A program made the position numbers and the translations under genes. Shown piece after piece: positions 27,305-44,151 of a DNA stretch of 44,151 nucleotides. The notes under the pieces are model-generated. The model did no database searches, was not told the DNA's origin, and saw only the letters and a list, made by a program, of their open reading frames with translations. The DNA is from a virus (lineage: Duplodnaviria; Caudoviricetes): the IMG/VR virus record IMGVR_UViG_3300032315_000313, positions 1 to 44,151 of that record, one strand, 5' to 3'. Each line of letters starts with the position of its first letter. Positions within the stretch are counted from its first letter, which is position 1.

Positions 27305-27925
27305 TTAATTACAACCACAATTACAATTACCACCTAGTAAATCAGATAGTAGGGAATACAATTTATCAGCTTTTTTTACATCTCCGCATCTAACAGCATT
27401 ACATAATGCTTGATTATATGCAGCTAACATCATATATTTATCAACTTCTTTTTTACTACATTTAGAAGTTAAACAATAATCATCAGCTAATTTTACTAAT
27501 TCTTGTTTTAGTTTACATTGTAAGTTACAAGTTAAATAAAAATACTGAGTTACAGTATATGTAGTACTTATAGTATTAGCAAAATAAGTTATTTTATACT
27601 TACCATCTTGAATAAGTTTATTAGGGTCATTTTGACCACTTTGAGCTGTTAAGCCACCTGTTAAACTAGGAAATACTTGTAGTCCATTTGTAAATAATAA
27701 ACTACCTGAAAAAGAAGTAGTATATGGACCAATATTAGAAGTTATATTATTAGGGTCTACAATTGTAAATCCCCAGTTATAACCATTAAAGTCTGTTTTA
27801 GCTGGATTAGGTGTACCAAAACCCCCTGGGTTAGTTGATACATTATAATCACCAGTAGCATCAAATAGATAGATTCTATCGCAAGTGCTACTTTCATTTA
27901 GGGAGGATTTTAGTGATAGAGCCAT
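27305..27925 (-). CDS. Putative tail hub / fibre-attachment protein
   Basis: DATGDY...GGFGTPN and DGKYKITY motifs; helical Cys-rich C-terminus ending CNCGCN. Confidence 0.55.
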   Translation of the reverse strand: MALSLKSSLNESSTCDRIYLFDATGDYNVSTNPGGFGTPNPAKTDFNGYNWGFTIVDPNNITSNIGPYTTSFSGSLLFTNGLQVFPSLTGGLTAQSGQNDPNKLIQDGKYKITYFANTISTTYTVTQYFYLTCNLQCKLKQELVKLADDYCLTSKCSKKEVDKYMMLAAYNQALCNAVRCGDVKKADKLYSLLSDLLGGNCNCGCN

Positions 27926-27926
27926 A

Positions 27927-27963
27927 AAATAAAAAGGGTACTAATTATACGTTAGCACCCTTT
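27927..27963 (-). terminator. Intrinsic terminator-like hairpin after the capsid-accessory genes
   Basis: Minus strand AAAGGGUGCUAA-CGUAUAA-UUAGUACCCUUU (12-bp stem with one G-U) followed by UUAUUUU. Confidence 0.65.
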
Positions 27964-27974
27964 ATAAAGTTATT
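27946..27974 (-). promoter_or_regulatory. Putative ECF-like promoter AATAAC-N17-CGTATA
   Basis: The same bipartite motif recurs at 34174-34201 and 44016-44042, all intergenic and sense to the genes. Confidence 0.5.
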
Positions 27975-27983
27975 AGATTTTAA

Positions 27984-28397
27984 TTATTGAGAGATTAAAT
28001 AAGTAACATAAAAAGTTAATACAGCAGCAGTAATATCATTTGTAGTAGCAGTACCTTTAACTGCAAACCTCAAATTACCAGCTGTGGATATAACTTTTGG
28101 AGCTGTTACTGTAACAACACTTCCAGTAGTTACTGCTGTTGGATAGCATGTAGTAGAAATATCAGTATTACTCGCATGAGTAGTACTATTACCTACTTGT
28201 AGTACCATCATTGTATTAGTAGTAGTACCACTCGCTTGAGTTGTACCTTTTACAATTACAGAAGATATAATAGCACCAGCAGGTATTTTAATTCCTAAAT
28301 CATATGCACTTGTAGCACCAGCAGTACCACCATTAGCAGCAACACTATAATCAGCTGTTACTGTCCTTGATTTTAAATTTTGTTTATTAGTAGACAT
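27984..28397 (-). CDS. Putative head decoration / small capsid-associated protein
   Basis: Thr/Ala-rich beta protein (LGIKIPAGAII); follows the auxiliary capsid gene and precedes a terminator. Confidence 0.5.
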   Translation of the reverse strand: MSTNKQNLKSRTVTADYSVAANGGTAGATSAYDLGIKIPAGAIISSVIVKGTTQASGTTTNTMMVLQVGNSTTHASNTDISTTCYPTAVTTGSVVTVTAPKVISTAGNLRFAVKGTATTNDITAAVLTFYVTYLISQ

Positions 28398-32507: not shown

Positions 32508-32537
32508 GACTTTATTTATAACTATTTATTTTTTTAG

Positions 32538-32611
32538 TAGCGGAAACAGGATTCGAACCTGCGACCTCTTGGTTATGAGCCAAGCGAACTGACCAACTGT
32601 TCCATTCCGCA
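32538..32611 (-). tRNA. tRNA-Met (CAU), initiator-like
   Basis: TGCGGAATGGAACAGTTGGTCAGTTCGCTTGG-CTCATAA-CCAAGAGGTCGCAGG-TTCGAAT-CCTGTTTCCGCTA folds as a full cloverleaf; no encoded CCA. Confidence 0.93.
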
Positions 32612-32625
32612 ATATTTAAACTATA

Positions 32626-32657
32626 CCCCTAGCTTTGACGAATCAGGGAACTAGGGG
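32626..32657 (-). terminator. Stem-loop after the major capsid gene (terminator or stabilising/processing hairpin)
   Basis: Minus strand CCCCUAG...UGA-UUCG-UCA...CUAGGGG; the U-tract after it is weak. Confidence 0.55.
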
Positions 32658-32674
32658 AATTAGTTAAGTTTTAA

Positions 32675-36523: not shown

Positions 36524-39120
36524 TATTTATTACTACTTGGTTTAGGACGCATACGAGTTACTTTTATAGTGGTTTCATTTTTAGCATCATTTATTTCTTT
36601 TTGATTAGCATTATTTTTATCAGCTATTTTTTCATTAGATTTAATAGAGTCTGCATTTTTTTCTAAATCAGCTTTAATCTTATCCTGATTTTGTTTATCT
36701 TGAGCTTTAATTTTTTCTTTTTCTACATTTAAAGCATCATTCTGCATTTTAAGTTTAAGCATTTCTATAACCTTTTTATTTTGTTCTTTAGCTAATTCTA
36801 AATCTGTTTTAAGTTCTATTTCTTTATCTTTTTGTTCTAGTTTTTTCATTTCTATGATATCAGCTACAATGTTAGTTTCTTTTTCTGGAGTTTCTTCTAT
36901 CATACCTTGTTGAATTTTCATTTTTTCAACTAATATTTTAGTTTCATTATCTCTAATATTCATCTCATTTTCTAAGTCTCTATCTGCTTGCTTATCTTGA
37001 GCTTTTATTTGTTCTAGTTTCTGTGCAGCTTCAGCTTCAGCTTGAGCAGCAGCTTGTTCTCTCTGTTCTTGTTTCATCTCAGATTGAACTATTTTATTTT
37101 TTATATCACTAATAGATTCAGTTTCTAATATAGAAATTACATCAGAGAATCTAATTAAATTAGACCTTAATGCATCGTTAGCTAAGTTTTTAAGAGTATC
37201 TACAATTAAATTATCTTTAGCTGAATTAGATACAAACACACTAAATTGAGTATTAGATAACTCTGGGCCATCTATCTCAAATAGAACTCTAGACATATCG
37301 TCTAATATGTATTGAGCTTTTTTGCCATTAACCCATGCTATTTGAGCGCACTCTAATAAATTAGTTAGTACATATCTTTTAACATTATTATGAGTCTCAA
37401 ACATAGGCTCAGTAATATGAGAGGATTGTATTATAGTTCTTTCTACATTACCAACTCTTTCACTAGTACTTACCTCTCCCTGTCTTTGACGGCTAACTCC
37501 TGATATTTCCCCAATTTCTTCTTTTATTCTTTCTAAAGCCATTACGTACTGGTCTATAACTCTAGCTAAAGATAAATCTATTTCTGCAAATTGATTAAAC
37601 CCAGAAGTTCTACCAGCTCCTAATGGTCCATTACCTTCTTCAAAAGAGTTTATAAATGCAATTCCTAATGCATCTAAATAATAAAGCCATTTATCTACAT
37701 CAAACCCCATAGACCTAGGAATCTGAGCAATGTCCATTAAAAATACTTTATCCTTAGCTTTCGCAAAAGTAAGTTCTAAACGATACATTAAAATATTATA
37801 CAAGTACTGCCAAGGTTTCATTACTTCTACTAAAGAAGTACCTTTAGAATTTCTTTTATTATAAACAGTTCCTGTATAAGATAACTTACATTCTGATAAA
37901 TTATCTAAATTCCAATATTGATATGGTTTTTCTTGTACTTTACAAAATACACTAGCCCCTATTTGAGTTCCTTGATATACGCAATTTATCCATTTCCATT
38001 CTAAATCAATGAAGTTATCTGGTTGTAGCTTTTTAAACTCTGAGGCACTAAATTCTTCACTTACTTGTGTTTCTTGAGGTATACCATTTTCATCTAAATA
38101 TGATAGAAACCCTATTTTCTTTAGTCCTTTCCATTCATATTGTAAAACTCTTACTAATTGAGATGCAGTATCATACTTATACGGATATGTTGCTGGCAAA
38201 TACGCCATATCAGTATATCCGTAACTACCTATTGTAGCATTTTGAGATAAAGCCCCATAGTTACCTCTACGAAATTGCTCTATCTTATCTATATCTTCCT
38301 CATTTAAATCATCATAAAACTCATCATATATTTCTGATGGGGTTAAATATCTTTCTTCATATACCCATTGACTATCATGAATATATTTTAAGTCTGGTGA
38401 TAAATCAAATCTAACATAAGCTGGGTTTACTAACCGTAACTTAGGTTCCCCATTAATTATACCAGTCCAATACATTTCTTTACCACATATAAGCAAATCT
38501 TTCCAACCATCGTTGAATTGCTCTTTTATGTTTTCGTATTTAACTAAATAATTTAGAGATTGATTGGCAATCTTTTCTCTTATATGCTTATAATTGTAAG
38601 TAAAGTATTCTTCAATTTGCCTTGGAGTTATGGGCTCTCCTTCAGGAGTTTCTACTGGTAGTCCAGCAGCTTGCATTTCTTGCAATATTAATTGCTCCAA
38701 GTATTGCTTAATACTAAGAGTTTTTTCTTCTAATACTTCACTAATTACTTCTGGATTTTCTGCAACTACCCTAAAATTAAAAGGTCTTTTTATTTCCTCT
38801 CCAACTAACAAATCAACTTTAGGCTTTATTATATTGTAGTTCTGTAATGTTGCTGGAAAGTTACCTACTTTTCTACCATAAGGTTCTATTACATGCTTAA
38901 AATCTTCTTCATGCAATATATCATTATACAAGTCATAATTTACTTGGTCACTATAACCAGTAGTTATCCCATAAGCAGGCCTATTTACAGATATTCGTAG
39001 TATGGATAACATACTTTGTTTACCCCATTCTTCAAATGAGCCAAACTCTTTTATTTTTTCTTTAGTTGTAAGCTTCTGTGTTACAAAAGCATTACTAGTA
39101 TCTTTGTTATTATTACTCAT
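36523..39120 (-). CDS. Portal protein
   Basis: 865 aa; YNIIKPKVDLLVGEE, SLVEVMKPWQYLYNI and GVSRQRQG motifs, long C-terminal coiled coil; follows TerL. Confidence 0.93.
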   Translation of the reverse strand: MSNNNKDTSNAFVTQKLTTKEKIKEFGSFEEWGKQSMLSILRISVNRPAYGITTGYSDQVNYDLYNDILHEEDFKHVIEPYGRKVGNFPATLQNYNIIKPKVDLLVGEEIKRPFNFRVVAENPEVISEVLEEKTLSIKQYLEQLILQEMQAAGLPVETPEGEPITPRQIEEYFTYNYKHIREKIANQSLNYLVKYENIKEQFNDGWKDLLICGKEMYWTGIINGEPKLRLVNPAYVRFDLSPDLKYIHDSQWVYEERYLTPSEIYDEFYDDLNEEDIDKIEQFRRGNYGALSQNATIGSYGYTDMAYLPATYPYKYDTASQLVRVLQYEWKGLKKIGFLSYLDENGIPQETQVSEEFSASEFKKLQPDNFIDLEWKWINCVYQGTQIGASVFCKVQEKPYQYWNLDNLSECKLSYTGTVYNKRNSKGTSLVEVMKPWQYLYNILMYRLELTFAKAKDKVFLMDIAQIPRSMGFDVDKWLYYLDALGIAFINSFEEGNGPLGAGRTSGFNQFAEIDLSLARVIDQYVMALERIKEEIGEISGVSRQRQGEVSTSERVGNVERTIIQSSHITEPMFETHNNVKRYVLTNLLECAQIAWVNGKKAQYILDDMSRVLFEIDGPELSNTQFSVFVSNSAKDNLIVDTLKNLANDALRSNLIRFSDVISILETESISDIKNKIVQSEMKQEQREQAAAQAEAEAAQKLEQIKAQDKQADRDLENEMNIRDNETKILVEKMKIQQGMIEETPEKETNIVADIIEMKKLEQKDKEIELKTDLELAKEQNKKVIEMLKLKMQNDALNVEKEKIKAQDKQNQDKIKADLEKNADSIKSNEKIADKNNANQKEINDAKNETTIKVTRMRPKPSSNK

Positions 39121-41081
39121 TATCTGTCAAATAGTTTTCTAGTAAAAAAATCATCTATATAACTAGCTTCTTCTCGTTTAGCTACTTTTATCTTATGATT
39201 TTCATACCTATGTAAAATACATAGCATAAACGCTATAACTCTATCAAAGTTACCTTCATCATCATAAGCTATTAGTTCTTTTAGTAACGGAGCACTATAA
39301 ATCTTATGCAGATTCAATTTTCCAGGGGCATATTCTTCTAATAACCAATCACATGTTATTCTTTCGCAGTAGTCTTTTATAACTACATTCATATGCACTC
39401 CTTTTTCTCTTTGTACAGTAGAGTTCTTAACTATATCTTTAAGAATAATAGGTTGGTCTTTTAGTAAATAATCACAGTTTTTAAGTTGGCAATACTGGTG
39501 CATCCCTTTAACTTGATTCTCATAAAGACATATAGCATTATAATATTTTAATAACTTAATACAATTTTCATAGAAATCTTGAGCTCTATCAGGTCTACCA
39601 GTATATTCAGCAACAGGCCAATCGTATGTTTCTCCTAAATGATTAATTTGTTTAAATATAAACATAGACCCTAAAGACCCTGTTTCTGATCTATCGTGGT
39701 CATAGGGGTCTTGCCCAGCAATATATAATCCATAAGGGATATCACCCATTGGAGGTTGTTCCCAAATAGTAATGCAACCTTCTTCTTCACCTCTTTTAGT
39801 AGGATAATCAGCTGCTCTACGAGATTCATCTACTTTGAATTGTACTTTACCAGCTTCATCATAAAACATATACCCCCTAACTCCTAACTCATTAGCAGAA
39901 GCTGTAGTTTGTAAATAAGACAGATGCCTATCTAGTTCAGCTACTGGAAATCTCCTACCTTTAGTTATTTGGAATGCTTCTTTAGGGCACCAAGGATTCT
40001 CTGTTATATAAGAATCTAATGCTGACCTACTTTTAGCTGTTAAAGCAATATGGTCTCTTTTTTTAGTTTCCCATTCTTTGGCTTCTTCAATTAAACTATT
40101 ACCATCAGCATCTATAAACCCTGTTTTATTTAAATATGATGGGAAAAAGAATCCAGATTTAGTACCAATTCTATCTAAGTCCCATTCATTTTCTAATGCC
40201 ATAAATCCATACGGCTCTGGGTTATAAAACAACTCATTAAAATCAGCCCAGTCTTCATTATCTGAGCCCCCTGTACCAAATACAACCATTATACCTGTTG
40301 TATAAACCCCATCATTTAGTGTTTCTAGGGTAGCTTTTACAGCTGGTAATAAATTGGGAAATTTACCTGCTTCATCTAAAAAAATAAGCTGAGCATCTTT
40401 ACCCCTACCTACGTCAGGGTTATCTTTAAATGATAAAGATAGTATAGTTGACTTATATCCCGATTCTACAGGTACCCCGTCAATATATTTAATATAAGAA
40501 GCACGTAATTCATCTATTTTATTACTAACCTCTCTTCTTTTAGTCCATGCAGTATGTTCATTTAGGAATTCTAAGTAGTCTTTAGCCATCTTAGTAATCC
40601 CTGCTCCACCAAATAAGAATTTCTTTTCAAATGCCCCTAATATAACCATACTATTTTTAACAGTATTGTAAGTATTAGCTGCAACCCATCCATTCTTATA
40701 TGAAAACCCTTTTCTTCTAGCCTTAGCTATACATAAATGGAGTCCTTTACTTTGGGCTTCTTTTAGTTTTCTAAAATATAGAGCATCTCCATCCCAGAAA
40801 CTAGGAAAAGATAGTACTTTTTTACCACTTCTTCCCCCTATTTCCTTAGATATAGTCTTTCCATTCTCATCATCAATTAATTTAATAAGAGCAAAATTCA
40901 AATAACCATAGTGGTCTCCTGTAATATGCTCTCCACCAACAGAATAGCCTTCTATGCAACGTCTAGTTTGCTCATCCCAATAGTCTTTATAGTCTCTTGT
41001 GCCTTTTGGGGCAGCACAAAAGTAACCATTTCTCTTGAAAAACTGTGCATCTCTGCTATATTCTGCTGTATTAATCCACAT
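39120..41081 (-). CDS. terL: Terminase large subunit
   Basis: Walker A KARRKGFS, Walker B IFLDEAG, motif III GTGG, nuclease motifs GQDPY and NFDRVIA. Confidence 0.95.
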   Translation of the reverse strand: MWINTAEYSRDAQFFKRNGYFCAAPKGTRDYKDYWDEQTRRCIEGYSVGGEHITGDHYGYLNFALIKLIDDENGKTISKEIGGRSGKKVLSFPSFWDGDALYFRKLKEAQSKGLHLCIAKARRKGFSYKNGWVAANTYNTVKNSMVILGAFEKKFLFGGAGITKMAKDYLEFLNEHTAWTKRREVSNKIDELRASYIKYIDGVPVESGYKSTILSLSFKDNPDVGRGKDAQLIFLDEAGKFPNLLPAVKATLETLNDGVYTTGIMVVFGTGGSDNEDWADFNELFYNPEPYGFMALENEWDLDRIGTKSGFFFPSYLNKTGFIDADGNSLIEEAKEWETKKRDHIALTAKSRSALDSYITENPWCPKEAFQITKGRRFPVAELDRHLSYLQTTASANELGVRGYMFYDEAGKVQFKVDESRRAADYPTKRGEEEGCITIWEQPPMGDIPYGLYIAGQDPYDHDRSETGSLGSMFIFKQINHLGETYDWPVAEYTGRPDRAQDFYENCIKLLKYYNAICLYENQVKGMHQYCQLKNCDYLLKDQPIILKDIVKNSTVQREKGVHMNVVIKDYCERITCDWLLEEYAPGKLNLHKIYSAPLLKELIAYDDEGNFDRVIAFMLCILHRYENHKIKVAKREEASYIDDFFTRKLFDR

Positions 41082-42788: not shown

Positions 42789-43002
42789 ATATACTTAAAT
42801 TTAATTTAAATGGTACTATTGTATTCTTTACTCCTTTAACTTGACTAAATCCATTATATGATGGCATGCATTCGTATTCTGTAGCCATTCTAAATCCATC
42901 AACACTACTTTCATAAGCTAAATAAATAGACTCTTCAAATTCAACTAAATCAAAGAAGTCATCAGCTATAAATGTCATACTAGTTATTAATACTTCGCTC
43001 AT
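42775..43002 (-). CDS. Hypothetical protein
   Basis: 75-aa ORF overlapping both neighbours. Confidence 0.5.
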   Translation of the reverse strand: MSEVLITSMTFIADDFFDLVEFEESIYLAYESSVDGFRMATEYECMPSYNGFSQVKGVKNTIVPFKLNLSIYGKV

Positions 43003-43393
43003 TTATCTCAATATTATATGTAAGTTGCACATTACTGTATGGAATATATAACTTAGAAGTTACTACTCTTGTTACATGATCGTAATGAATAAGTTTCTTA
43101 TTTTCTAATCTACCAAATAATTGACTATAATTAAACTGGGATACACCCATAAGAGTATATATCTCTTTACGAACATCTACATTAAGAACTAAACCAACAT
43201 ACTGCCCCCCAGCTTCTCTACTAGCCAACCAACTAAAGAAAAAAATACAAGCTAATGCGTCAGCTTCTTTATTAGTTAACCCAACTAAACAATGACAATA
43301 AGCTTTATAAAAGTCTAAACCTGATTCACTAGTAACCCTTTTGGTTATTTTAACTGCATTACTCATTATTACTAATATTATAGGTTCTATCAA
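42980..43393 (-). CDS. Winged-HTH-like protein (start probably at the internal MSNAV)
   Basis: LTNKEADAL...RKEIYTLMGVSQFNYSQLFGRLENKKLI fits a wHTH pattern. Confidence 0.55.
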   Translation of the reverse strand: MIEPIILVIMSNAVKITKRVTSESGLDFYKAYCHCLVGLTNKEADALACIFFFSWLASREAGGQYVGLVLNVDVRKEIYTLMGVSQFNYSQLFGRLENKKLIHYDHVTRVVTSKLYIPYSNVQLTYNIEINERSINN

Positions 43394-43658
43394 ACTTAGG
43401 AAATAAATAATCTTCTAATAATAACTTAGCTAAATTATACTCATACTCAGGAATGTATTGAAAAAACTTAATTAAATACTCATTCTTACCTGATACTGGA
43501 TTATTAACTAATTTTCTAAGCAGCCATATGTTAGGCCTAATCTCTCTTAAATCAAAGTTATACTTATTAAATACTCTTTGACCTTCTCTTTTAATAAACC
43601 CGAAATCCTCTGGACTCCATGTTTTAATAACTTCACTACTATTTAACTCTGTTTCCAT
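43359..43658 (-). CDS. Hypothetical protein, first gene of the late block
   Basis: 99-aa ORF preceded by A-rich repeats. Confidence 0.55.
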   Translation of the reverse strand: METELNSSEVIKTWSPEDFGFIKREGQRVFNKYNFDLREIRPNIWLLRKLVNNPVSGKNEYLIKFFQYIPEYEYNLAKLLLEDYLFPKFDRTYNISNNE

Positions 43659-43691
43659 TTTTACTTTAGTTTTTACTTTTAATTTTACTTT
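43659..43691 (-). repeat. Three AAAGTAAAA direct repeats with a 12-nt period
   Basis: ttttacttt at 43659-67, 43671-79 and 43683-91. Confidence 0.7.
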
Positions 43692-43694
43692 TAG

Positions 43695-44010
43695 TTCTAC
43701 TTATTAATAACAAACCCCTTTCGGCACGTATTATTTTGCCTACTCAATAGCTATTGCTGTTCAAAACTATCTTATCTACTTACCGTTTTTAGCCTCCAGT
43801 GGTTATCTCAATCTCACTTATAGTTACTTTTTATCGTAACACCACTCTAAGTATTTAGATAGTTTCTTTTGCTACTATCGGAGAAACCTCATTTCGCGAT
43901 AACAATTAATTTCTTAATTTACGCTACTCTTACTATCCGACTTCTGAGCATCACTTTTACAGGATTATACTATCAGTTGATGCTGTAATACTATGTCTAG
44001 TATGTAACAT
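43695..44010 (-). ncRNA. Candidate structured ncRNA or leader (possibly ROOL-like, compact)
   Basis: No ORF of 60 aa or more, several nested helices, a GAAA tetraloop, a long-range GUCGGA/UCCGAU pairing and a promoter-like motif just upstream. Confidence 0.55.
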
Positions 44011-44015
44011 ATAGA

Positions 44016-44042
44016 TATACGTTATGAGAGATAATAAGTTAC
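44016..44042 (-). promoter_or_regulatory. Putative ECF-like promoter GTAAC-N16-CGTATA with upstream A/T tracts
   Basis: Recurring motif; UP-element-like A/T tracts at 44043-44078. Confidence 0.55.
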
Positions 44043-44151
44043 GTATTTTTGATTTTTTTTAAAAAATTTTTTGGAAAATGTTTATATATGAACCACTCCA
44101 ATATAACACCCCCGGCTAGGTTTGGGCGTGCTCCCATGTATGCCCTTTATA

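Follow-up and report, generated by a model that had tools for sequence, protein, structure and literature searches.

A conserved structured RNA family in crAss-like phages and Bacteroidota islands

The late-gene locus and its predicted RNA

The window, meaning the whole stretch of DNA analysed here, is a single contig of 44,151 nt whose long open reading frames (ORFs) all lie on the minus strand. According to PHROG matches, this gene block encodes a terminase, a portal protein, a major capsid protein and giant virion proteins. The large terminase subunit (39120..41081, minus strand; PHROG 6681) served as the anchor for collecting relatives. Its best named matches belong to the Crassvirales, at about 38 to 41% identity, and the terminases of the closest relatives of the window phage are 75 to 80% identical to it. 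The window comes from a crAss-like phage. Its longest gap between genes (43659-44151) precedes the first gene of the block, and the second-longest measures 167 nt, which bears out an earlier sequence-only reading in which the long non-coding stretch was held to be the only one in the window. The shorter gap (32508-32674), directly behind the major capsid gene, contains a tRNA-Met gene (32537-32611) and a hairpin.

The first ORF on the 3' side of the RNA described below (43359..43658, minus strand) encodes 99 amino acids and has no PHROG match. The same is true of the gene at 42980..43393 (minus strand), a conserved gene of the crAss late module that we used as an orientation marker and that has homologues at 29 of 78 loci and in 47 of 111 clusters. 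A phage GroES co-chaperonin gene often stands behind the RNA in aquatic crAss-like phages (L148, L149, L110, L325, L209 and L381); in the window, a Dps-like gene (PHROG 858) and an HU-like gene take its place. Ahead of the RNA promoter, a G5 block followed by A- and T-tracts (44050-44128, minus strand) is found, and the contig ends about 40 nt past the G5 block. It also occurs in relatives that lack the RNA (L087, 2911-3036; L094, 1741-1895; L148, 4910-5030) and could represent a distinct DNA element where the strands switch, such as an origin, a terminus or a bent segment.

The RNA is predicted to extend over about 303 nt of the minus strand (43706..44008), with its ends placed by helix P1 and by the 3' tail, and to fold into two domains, a four-way junction (P1, P1a, P2 and P3) and a long P4-P6 arm. 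P1 pairs the predicted first transcript bases (44004..44008) with 43875-43871, and this 3' strand (43871..43875) leads into an A-rich linker (43870-43867). The hairpin P1a (43988..44003), taken from the MFE fold, is optional in the family, being present in many homologues and absent from a marine subtype. P2 (43947..43984) was identified by covariation and by RNAalifold, and the P3 core helix with its internal loop and P3b extension (43877..43941) by covariation. Between them lies the junction J2/3 (43942..43946), whose invariant AGA is partly fixed by our copy filter. The core pairing of P3 (43941-36 with 43882-77) is followed by a conserved, asymmetric, S-turn-like internal loop (43935-31 opposite 43890-83). 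The window carries a second S-turn-like loop, a subtype seen in 11 of 111 clusters, while 90 clusters have an A(A/C)AUA loop instead. The 3' arm (43764..43866) comprises P4, a UAA/GAN-like internal loop, P5, P6, P6b and the loop 43822-43804. Its P5 is topped by a GGCUAAA junction motif (43783..43794), which occurs in 15 of 111 clusters and is aligned in L110. The RNA ends in a tail (43706..43726) made up of a hairpin loop, a G-run (43718-43715) and a degenerate URURY copy. S-turn, UAA/GAN and T-loop are, we presume, the proper motif names for the loops of this RNA. The unpaired core of the junction is nearly invariant across the family, in which the internal loops of the arm are also conserved. 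R1, a covariance model of the 5' domain, matched the window at 43864-44003 with 55.2 bits, the window itself being part of its seed.

All eight helices that the sequence-only reading had listed are exact on the minus strand, as are its three copies of GAUAGUA. Three copies of the repeat are specific to the window, occurring in 1 of 111 clusters. In the family numbering, the first, third, fourth and fifth of the listed helices are the conserved helices P2, P3, P4 and P5. The closing helix P1, the hairpin P1a and the GGCUAAA junction motif had been missed. A proposed GGCA/UGCC hairpin near the 3' end is present as written, but in homologues the last hairpin falls on the loop that immediately precedes the G-run. 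On the minus strand, the folding energy was unremarkable relative to dinucleotide shuffles (z = −0.85; 18 of 100 shuffles folded as well), and the plus strand folded better (z = −3.12). Folding energy alone thus provides no support for a minus-strand RNA. The strand was assigned because of the G-U patterns and the upstream promoters, and the RNA family is real despite its chance-level energy because its homologues covary.

Range of the family and covariation among homologues

We gathered 166 terminase-anchored loci and searched them using nhmmer with the window stretch, followed by iteration. The window stretch gave weak but syntenic matches on the same strand, and iteration added copies at E values of 1e-6 to 1e-26. 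A two-block core pattern was found in at least 120, at least 120 and 15 viral-contig stretches (at least 255, the first two counts being estimated at about 130 and 140), as well as in 36 bacterial genome contigs, 32 of which are titled Bacteroidota. Matches were dropped if they lacked the AGA junction or lay too close to the end of a contig. Among the matches listed, 260 copies were kept, which an identity threshold of 80% sorts into 111 clusters and one of 70% into 78. The scan was not exhaustive, given that a core pattern of the cr118_1 type, one base shorter, returned 0 matches although L014 has the variant; an exact 24-nt pattern also had 0 matches in viral contigs. When the window stretch was compared by BLAST with 50,697 named phage records, only chance matches appeared, and two homologues gave chance matches or none against named phages, while two gut-type homologues reached cr118_1.

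Model R1 detected the RNA at 10 of 93 terminase-anchored loci, always on the terminase strand and upstream of the terminase gene. Among loci with at least 5.5 kb upstream of the terminase, 7 of 66 have the RNA, two of them near-identical. One named genome, cr118_1 (Besingivirus coli), carries it at 66587-66705, where it is unannotated; searches of six other Suoliviridae, crAss001 and phi14:2 did not find it, which makes one of nine named Crassvirales genomes. The phage carriers are marine, freshwater and gut phages. In three of them (L176, L366 and L315), the locus does not look crAss-like and the RNA stands ahead of a terminase small subunit or ribonucleotide reductase gene.

Among 150 sampled Bacteroidota genomes, one has the RNA. 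Chromosomal carriers include cultured strains of Maribacter, Belliella, Algoriphagus, Aquirufa and Muricauda, among them Maribacter arcticus DSM 23546, Belliella buryatensis 5C, Algoriphagus confluentis NBRC 111222 and Aquirufa aurantiipilula 15D-MOB, and the islands with the RNA encode integrase, resolvase, excisionase-type HTH, AAA_24, restriction or DISARM-like genes. Each genome has one copy. The RNA is accessory and mobile. A search for plasmid carriage yielded a single weak match, to IncHI2, which the covariance model rejected, and no plasmid copy was found. At three loci (L305, L312 and L475, the last in G001), the RNA-bearing islands begin just behind glmS, whose 3' side we take to be the known insertion site of Tn7-like elements, and other such islands lie near tRNA genes. 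Six loci (L299, L301, L306, L312, L314 and L319), representing one Flavobacteriales island type, have a second conserved, hairpin-rich non-coding stretch about 230 to 330 nt behind the core, followed by an ORF of about 85 amino acids and an HTH_17 gene.

For the pairing test, 50 of the 78 representatives were put into a plain MAFFT alignment. In this alignment 81.4% of the cells were paired, compared to 66.3 ± 1.0% after shuffling and at most 55.5% in slid registers, and the covariation score was 0.48, compared to 0.22 for shuffled alignments. P2 was paired in 88.3% of cells, with both sides changing in 6 of 6 pairs, and P3 was paired in 100% of cells with compensatory changes; as aligned, only 42% of the inner P2 helix and 67% of P3b were paired. 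RNAalifold recovered P2 and P3 unaided. The core helices thus covary strongly among homologues.

P3 was followed in 105 of the 111 clusters, those that have canonical anchors, where counts describe mutually related clusters, not independent events, and where the search patterns permitted the P3 alternatives independently but fixed the invariant core positions in part. One P3 pair was C-G in 75 clusters, U-A in 23 and U-G in 7, and another was A-U in 66, G-C in 29, G-U in 9 and A-C in 1. A G-U wobble shifts between two adjacent positions (104 of 105 clusters), and a U.U/A.G exchange occurs beside the S-turn-like loop (102 of 105). A bulged base tracks an A-U/G-C pair in the manner of a base triple, being U with A-U in 66 clusters and G with G-C in 28 of the 105. 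In two gut copies (L460, 1637-1755, from cr118_1; L014, 2566-2698), both sides of the core internal loop are one base shorter, which is a compensatory deletion.

In the 48 of 111 clusters that have both anchors for P4 and P5, a fixed register was paired in 34 to 43 clusters per position for P5 and in 27 to 43 for P4. A fold like that of the window was predicted for L110, L026, L434, L288 and L457. Nine of 111 clusters (L167, L210, L341 and L457 among them) carry the UAUAA/GAAAU internal loop of the 3' arm in reversed orientation, as expected for a self-contained structural module. No covariation was detected between the tail and the A(A/C)AUA loop, or between the tail G-run and the 3' strand of P3, for which pairing is possible. 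The tail is compatible with the invariant UAUA of the P4/P5 loop in 62 of 66 cases, plus 2 with G-C, and shows no two-sided change there.

Searches of Rfam 15, at the gathering score and at an E value of ≤10, found no family match for the window, including ROOL and GOLLD, which we take to be RF03087 and RF02032, respectively. Fifteen long and 18 short homologue loci matched only tRNAs in Rfam, apart from one chance match to IMES-5 (22.8 bits, with a gathering score of 96.1) on the opposite strand. We found no published description of the RNA; an unnamed candidate is possible in the alignment supplements of Fremin (PMC10690425 and PMC8040213). Term searches showed that it is not described in PMC8375218, PMC7886860, PMC10136315 or PMC10172136, the third of these being a Crassvirales review in which non-coding RNA was not mentioned, and the main text of two 2026 preprints on RNA mining with genome language models has 0 occurrences of "crass". 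These results establish a real, conserved and uncatalogued RNA family, and the earlier proposal of a structured phage RNA that might be a new class has therefore held up.

Transcription unit and orientation

A promoter motif is located at the 5' end of the RNA in 72 of 111 clusters. In 64 of them, TAnnTTTG lies 30 to 130 nt ahead of the core, against a background of 0.07 per 100 nt; this is the Bacteroidetes primary-sigma box (PMC7366714). In these 64 clusters, P1 begins 3 to 8 nt behind TTTG in 54, with 26 different pairings, whereas shuffled partners gave 8.3 ± 2.5 and at most 16 in 1,000 shuffles. With P1 directly behind TTTG, the RNA is predicted to start with P1 at +1, which in the window would be at about 44008. 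A further 8 clusters, the window included, have a GTAAC-N16-CGTA-like site (background, 0.015 per 120 nt), and no cluster has both. We take this site to be of the ECF-sigma type. In the window, it lies at 44018..44042 (minus strand), just upstream of the RNA, where the sequence-only reading had noted a promoter-like motif; a sigma-70 scan did not flag it. A window copy of TAnnTTTG inside the RNA, at 43769, is one of 40 on that strand. A second TAnnTTTG follows the tail within 140 nt in 26 of 88 viral clusters. Two loci, L324 and L352, have promoters of the TTGAC type, hinting at hosts outside the Bacteroidota. Elsewhere in the window, at 27925-27984, a second copy of the AACGTATA half of the promoter motif lies within a gap of 58 nt, inside a small inverted repeat, and this AACGTATA copy is possibly an internal promoter or a terminator of the late block.

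The 3' tail (hairpin, G-run and URURY) ends the RNA in 84 of 111 clusters, compared to 8 of 97 control stretches, and these 84 clusters give RNA lengths of 212 to 392 nt with a median of 266 nt. The window tail is degenerate, without a full URURY match. The tail resembles a Shine-Dalgarno sequence with a start codon, a combination that would be odd in Bacteroidota (PMC7797042). The start-codon reading was rejected: the triplet was AUA in 26, AUG in 22, GUA in 16, GUG in 7, another in 7 and none in 20 of 98 cases, its two purines change independently of each other, and most frames run into a stop codon within 7 codons. We predict from these sequence features that the RNA is a free-standing gene with its own promoter.

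Orientation was counted against the conserved late-module gene in 47 of 111 clusters, representing 172 copies. The RNA is co-oriented with and upstream of that gene in 40 clusters (152 copies) and lies on the opposite strand in 7 (20 copies), where convergent genes follow the RNA. In all four genomes examined from this opposite-strand clade, which are 85 to 100% complete, the RNA faces away from terL, surrounded by 16 to 20 kb of almost only opposite-strand genes, and it retains both domains and a promoter of its own. Relative to a restriction-type operon in five islands, the RNA was co-oriented once, divergent twice and convergent twice, and the first ORF behind the RNA is convergent in 12 of 23 bacterial clusters. 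The genes behind the RNA vary (GroES, terS, endonuclease, integrase, restriction genes and convergent ORFs), and among 675 ORFs from 78 loci no protein family was common to phage and island loci. The opposite-strand copies and the varying orientation in islands argue against a late-operon leader, an antiterminator or a packaging RNA.

Candidate roles of the RNA

An own promoter, free orientation, the lack of a partner gene and an invariant unpaired core are best fitted by a free host-binding or self-acting RNA. We tentatively favour, at a little below an even chance, a decoy or ligand that acts in trans on the gene-expression machinery of the host. Host RNA polymerase would transcribe the RNA from its own promoter during the middle or late phase, and the RNA would fold into a compact particle, present its invariant core as a binding surface and act in trans as a decoy or ligand for a conserved host factor. 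As a first guess, and taken by itself an unlikely one, the partner might be a transcription termination or silencing factor, whose capture would allow long, AT-rich foreign operons to be expressed more easily; the ribosome would be a second guess. Counting against a trans-acting RNA, it heads the late genes on their own strand in 40 of 47 crAss clusters, as it does in all 10 terminase-anchored matches, and a cis role would explain this directly.

Such a cis-acting leader would be a processive antiterminator of the put, EAR or conAn2 type that stays on the polymerase through the 43-kb late operon. The entire coding region of the window does lie on one strand, and in most crAss copies the RNA, like HK022 put, EAR and conAn2, is a structured RNA heading a long operon; conAn2 regions measure 260 to 600 bp (PMC8191782). 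RNA antiterminators act only in cis (PMC8191782), whereas the crAss RNA also lies opposite or convergent to its neighbours, so that the model fails for the family as a whole and could hold for co-oriented copies. It has to contend with the seven clusters in which the RNA points away from terL and the genes after it are convergent, with the convergent first ORFs of 12 of 23 bacterial clusters, with 59 of 66 terminase loci that lack the RNA and with four of five islands in which the cis feature is absent, and thus not family-wide. No catalogued antiterminator RNA in Rfam matched, and there is no shared NusG-like or other partner gene. We consider a cis-acting leader unlikely.

The sequence-only reading had been reminded of ROOL and GOLLD, and the likeness stands insofar as this too is a stand-alone, ornate, accessory phage RNA; there is neither an Rfam match nor a sequence relation. 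ROOL and GOLLD are phage and prophage RNAs that stand alone, fold elaborately, are non-essential, have no known partner protein and form RNA-only cages (PMC12286853). An RNA-only oligomer or cage of this kind would agree with a phage-borne, accessory RNA without a partner protein and with A-rich and T-loop-like elements (26 of 111 clusters in P3b and 39 of 111 in the 3' arm). However, at about 266 nt the crAss RNA is at most half the size of ROOL (659 nt) and far below GOLLD (>800 nt), and it is found in Crassvirales and Bacteroidota islands. ROOL and GOLLD have multiple pseudoknots and intermolecular kissing loops. Among the loops of the crAss RNA that were compared, no covarying partner in a loop or pseudoknot was found either for the tail or for the A(A/C)AUA loop. 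Moreover, tRNA genes lie within the locus in just 5 of 15 loci scanned. A cage is, in our estimate, rather improbable.

The crAss-like phage phi14:2 produces abundant long intergenic non-coding RNAs from g004-g006, whose function is unexplained (10.1101/2020.03.07.982082). Model R1 had no match in that region and a best E value of 1.5 genome-wide, and at that sensitivity they are not homologous. The ncRNAs of UG27 reverse transcriptases, which are structured RNAs in phages of Bacteroidota, form arrays of units of about 150 nt beside the reverse transcriptase (10.64898/2026.09.22.753630; PMC9226505); in contrast, the crAss RNA is single-copy and no reverse transcriptase was among the neighbours scanned.

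ColE1 RNA II forms an R-loop primer that is extended by host enzymes. An origin primer of this sort, forming its R-loop at the G-run, would be consistent with a single copy per genome, sufficiency of host factors and indifference to gene orientation, with a purine content of 57%, a terminal G-run and a frequent location at a strand switch, and with an RNase H gene four genes behind the RNA in cr118_1. That no plasmid carries the RNA, and that it lies away from the strand switch in the opposite-strand clade, makes this a decidedly unlikely role. We give an equally low probability to a new ribozyme class whose active site would be the invariant P3 loop and junction. The near-invariance of the unpaired core, the G-U wobble that shifts yet is conserved and the triple-like covariation are what such an enzyme would lead one to expect, but no Rfam ribozyme matched, there is no interrupted gene or flanking exon, and the 5' end coincides with a promoter rather than a cleavage site. 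A likeness of the core to the conserved regions of RNase P or to the hairpin ribozyme was considered and dropped, as the topology differs and there is no Rfam match.

The position of the RNA ahead of the packaging genes had earlier suggested a packaging or late-regulation role, which is weakened by the 7 of 47 crAss clusters with the RNA on the strand opposite to the late genes, by its presence in bacterial islands without nearby packaging genes and by its occurrence at only 7 of 66 terminase loci. A packaging RNA on the procapsid, of the phi29 pRNA type, would suit a position 2.6 kb ahead of terL in the window; the phi29 pRNA, bound to the procapsid portal, is essential and group-wide, whereas the crAss RNA was found at only those 7 of 66 terminase loci and in one of nine named genomes, is absent from crAss001, phi14:2 and the six Suoliviridae in our searches and occurs in islands that have no packaging genes, so that this role is highly improbable. 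A term search of the crAss001 virion paper found no mention of a pRNA (PMC10172136); the crAss RNA was not found in crAss001 itself. Least credible is a riboswitch operating through alternative GUUUC/GAAAC pairing, the switch hinted at by the sequence-only reading: the complement does exist in the window and the 5' domain is aptamer-sized, but the complement is found in 1 of 111 clusters and no constant gene lies downstream.

We regard a wider picture as possible though doubtful. In it, crAss-like phages and Bacteroidota defence islands would share a new class of protein-free RNA effector, a compact RNA of two domains whose invariant core would either bind a host machine, be it polymerase, termination factor or ribosome, or itself be catalytic; both sides of the conflict between phage and host would use it to reprogram gene expression in trans. 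In guts and oceans, Crassvirales rank among the most abundant phages, and the RNA described here is a broad family with an unusually invariant core that includes a classified genome, cr118_1. With cultured chromosomal carriers, its expression, deletion and pull-down are testable without isolating a phage. A length of about 270 to 300 nt suits cryo-electron microscopy, which could tell cages, decoys or enzymes apart among the mid-sized RNAs of phages.
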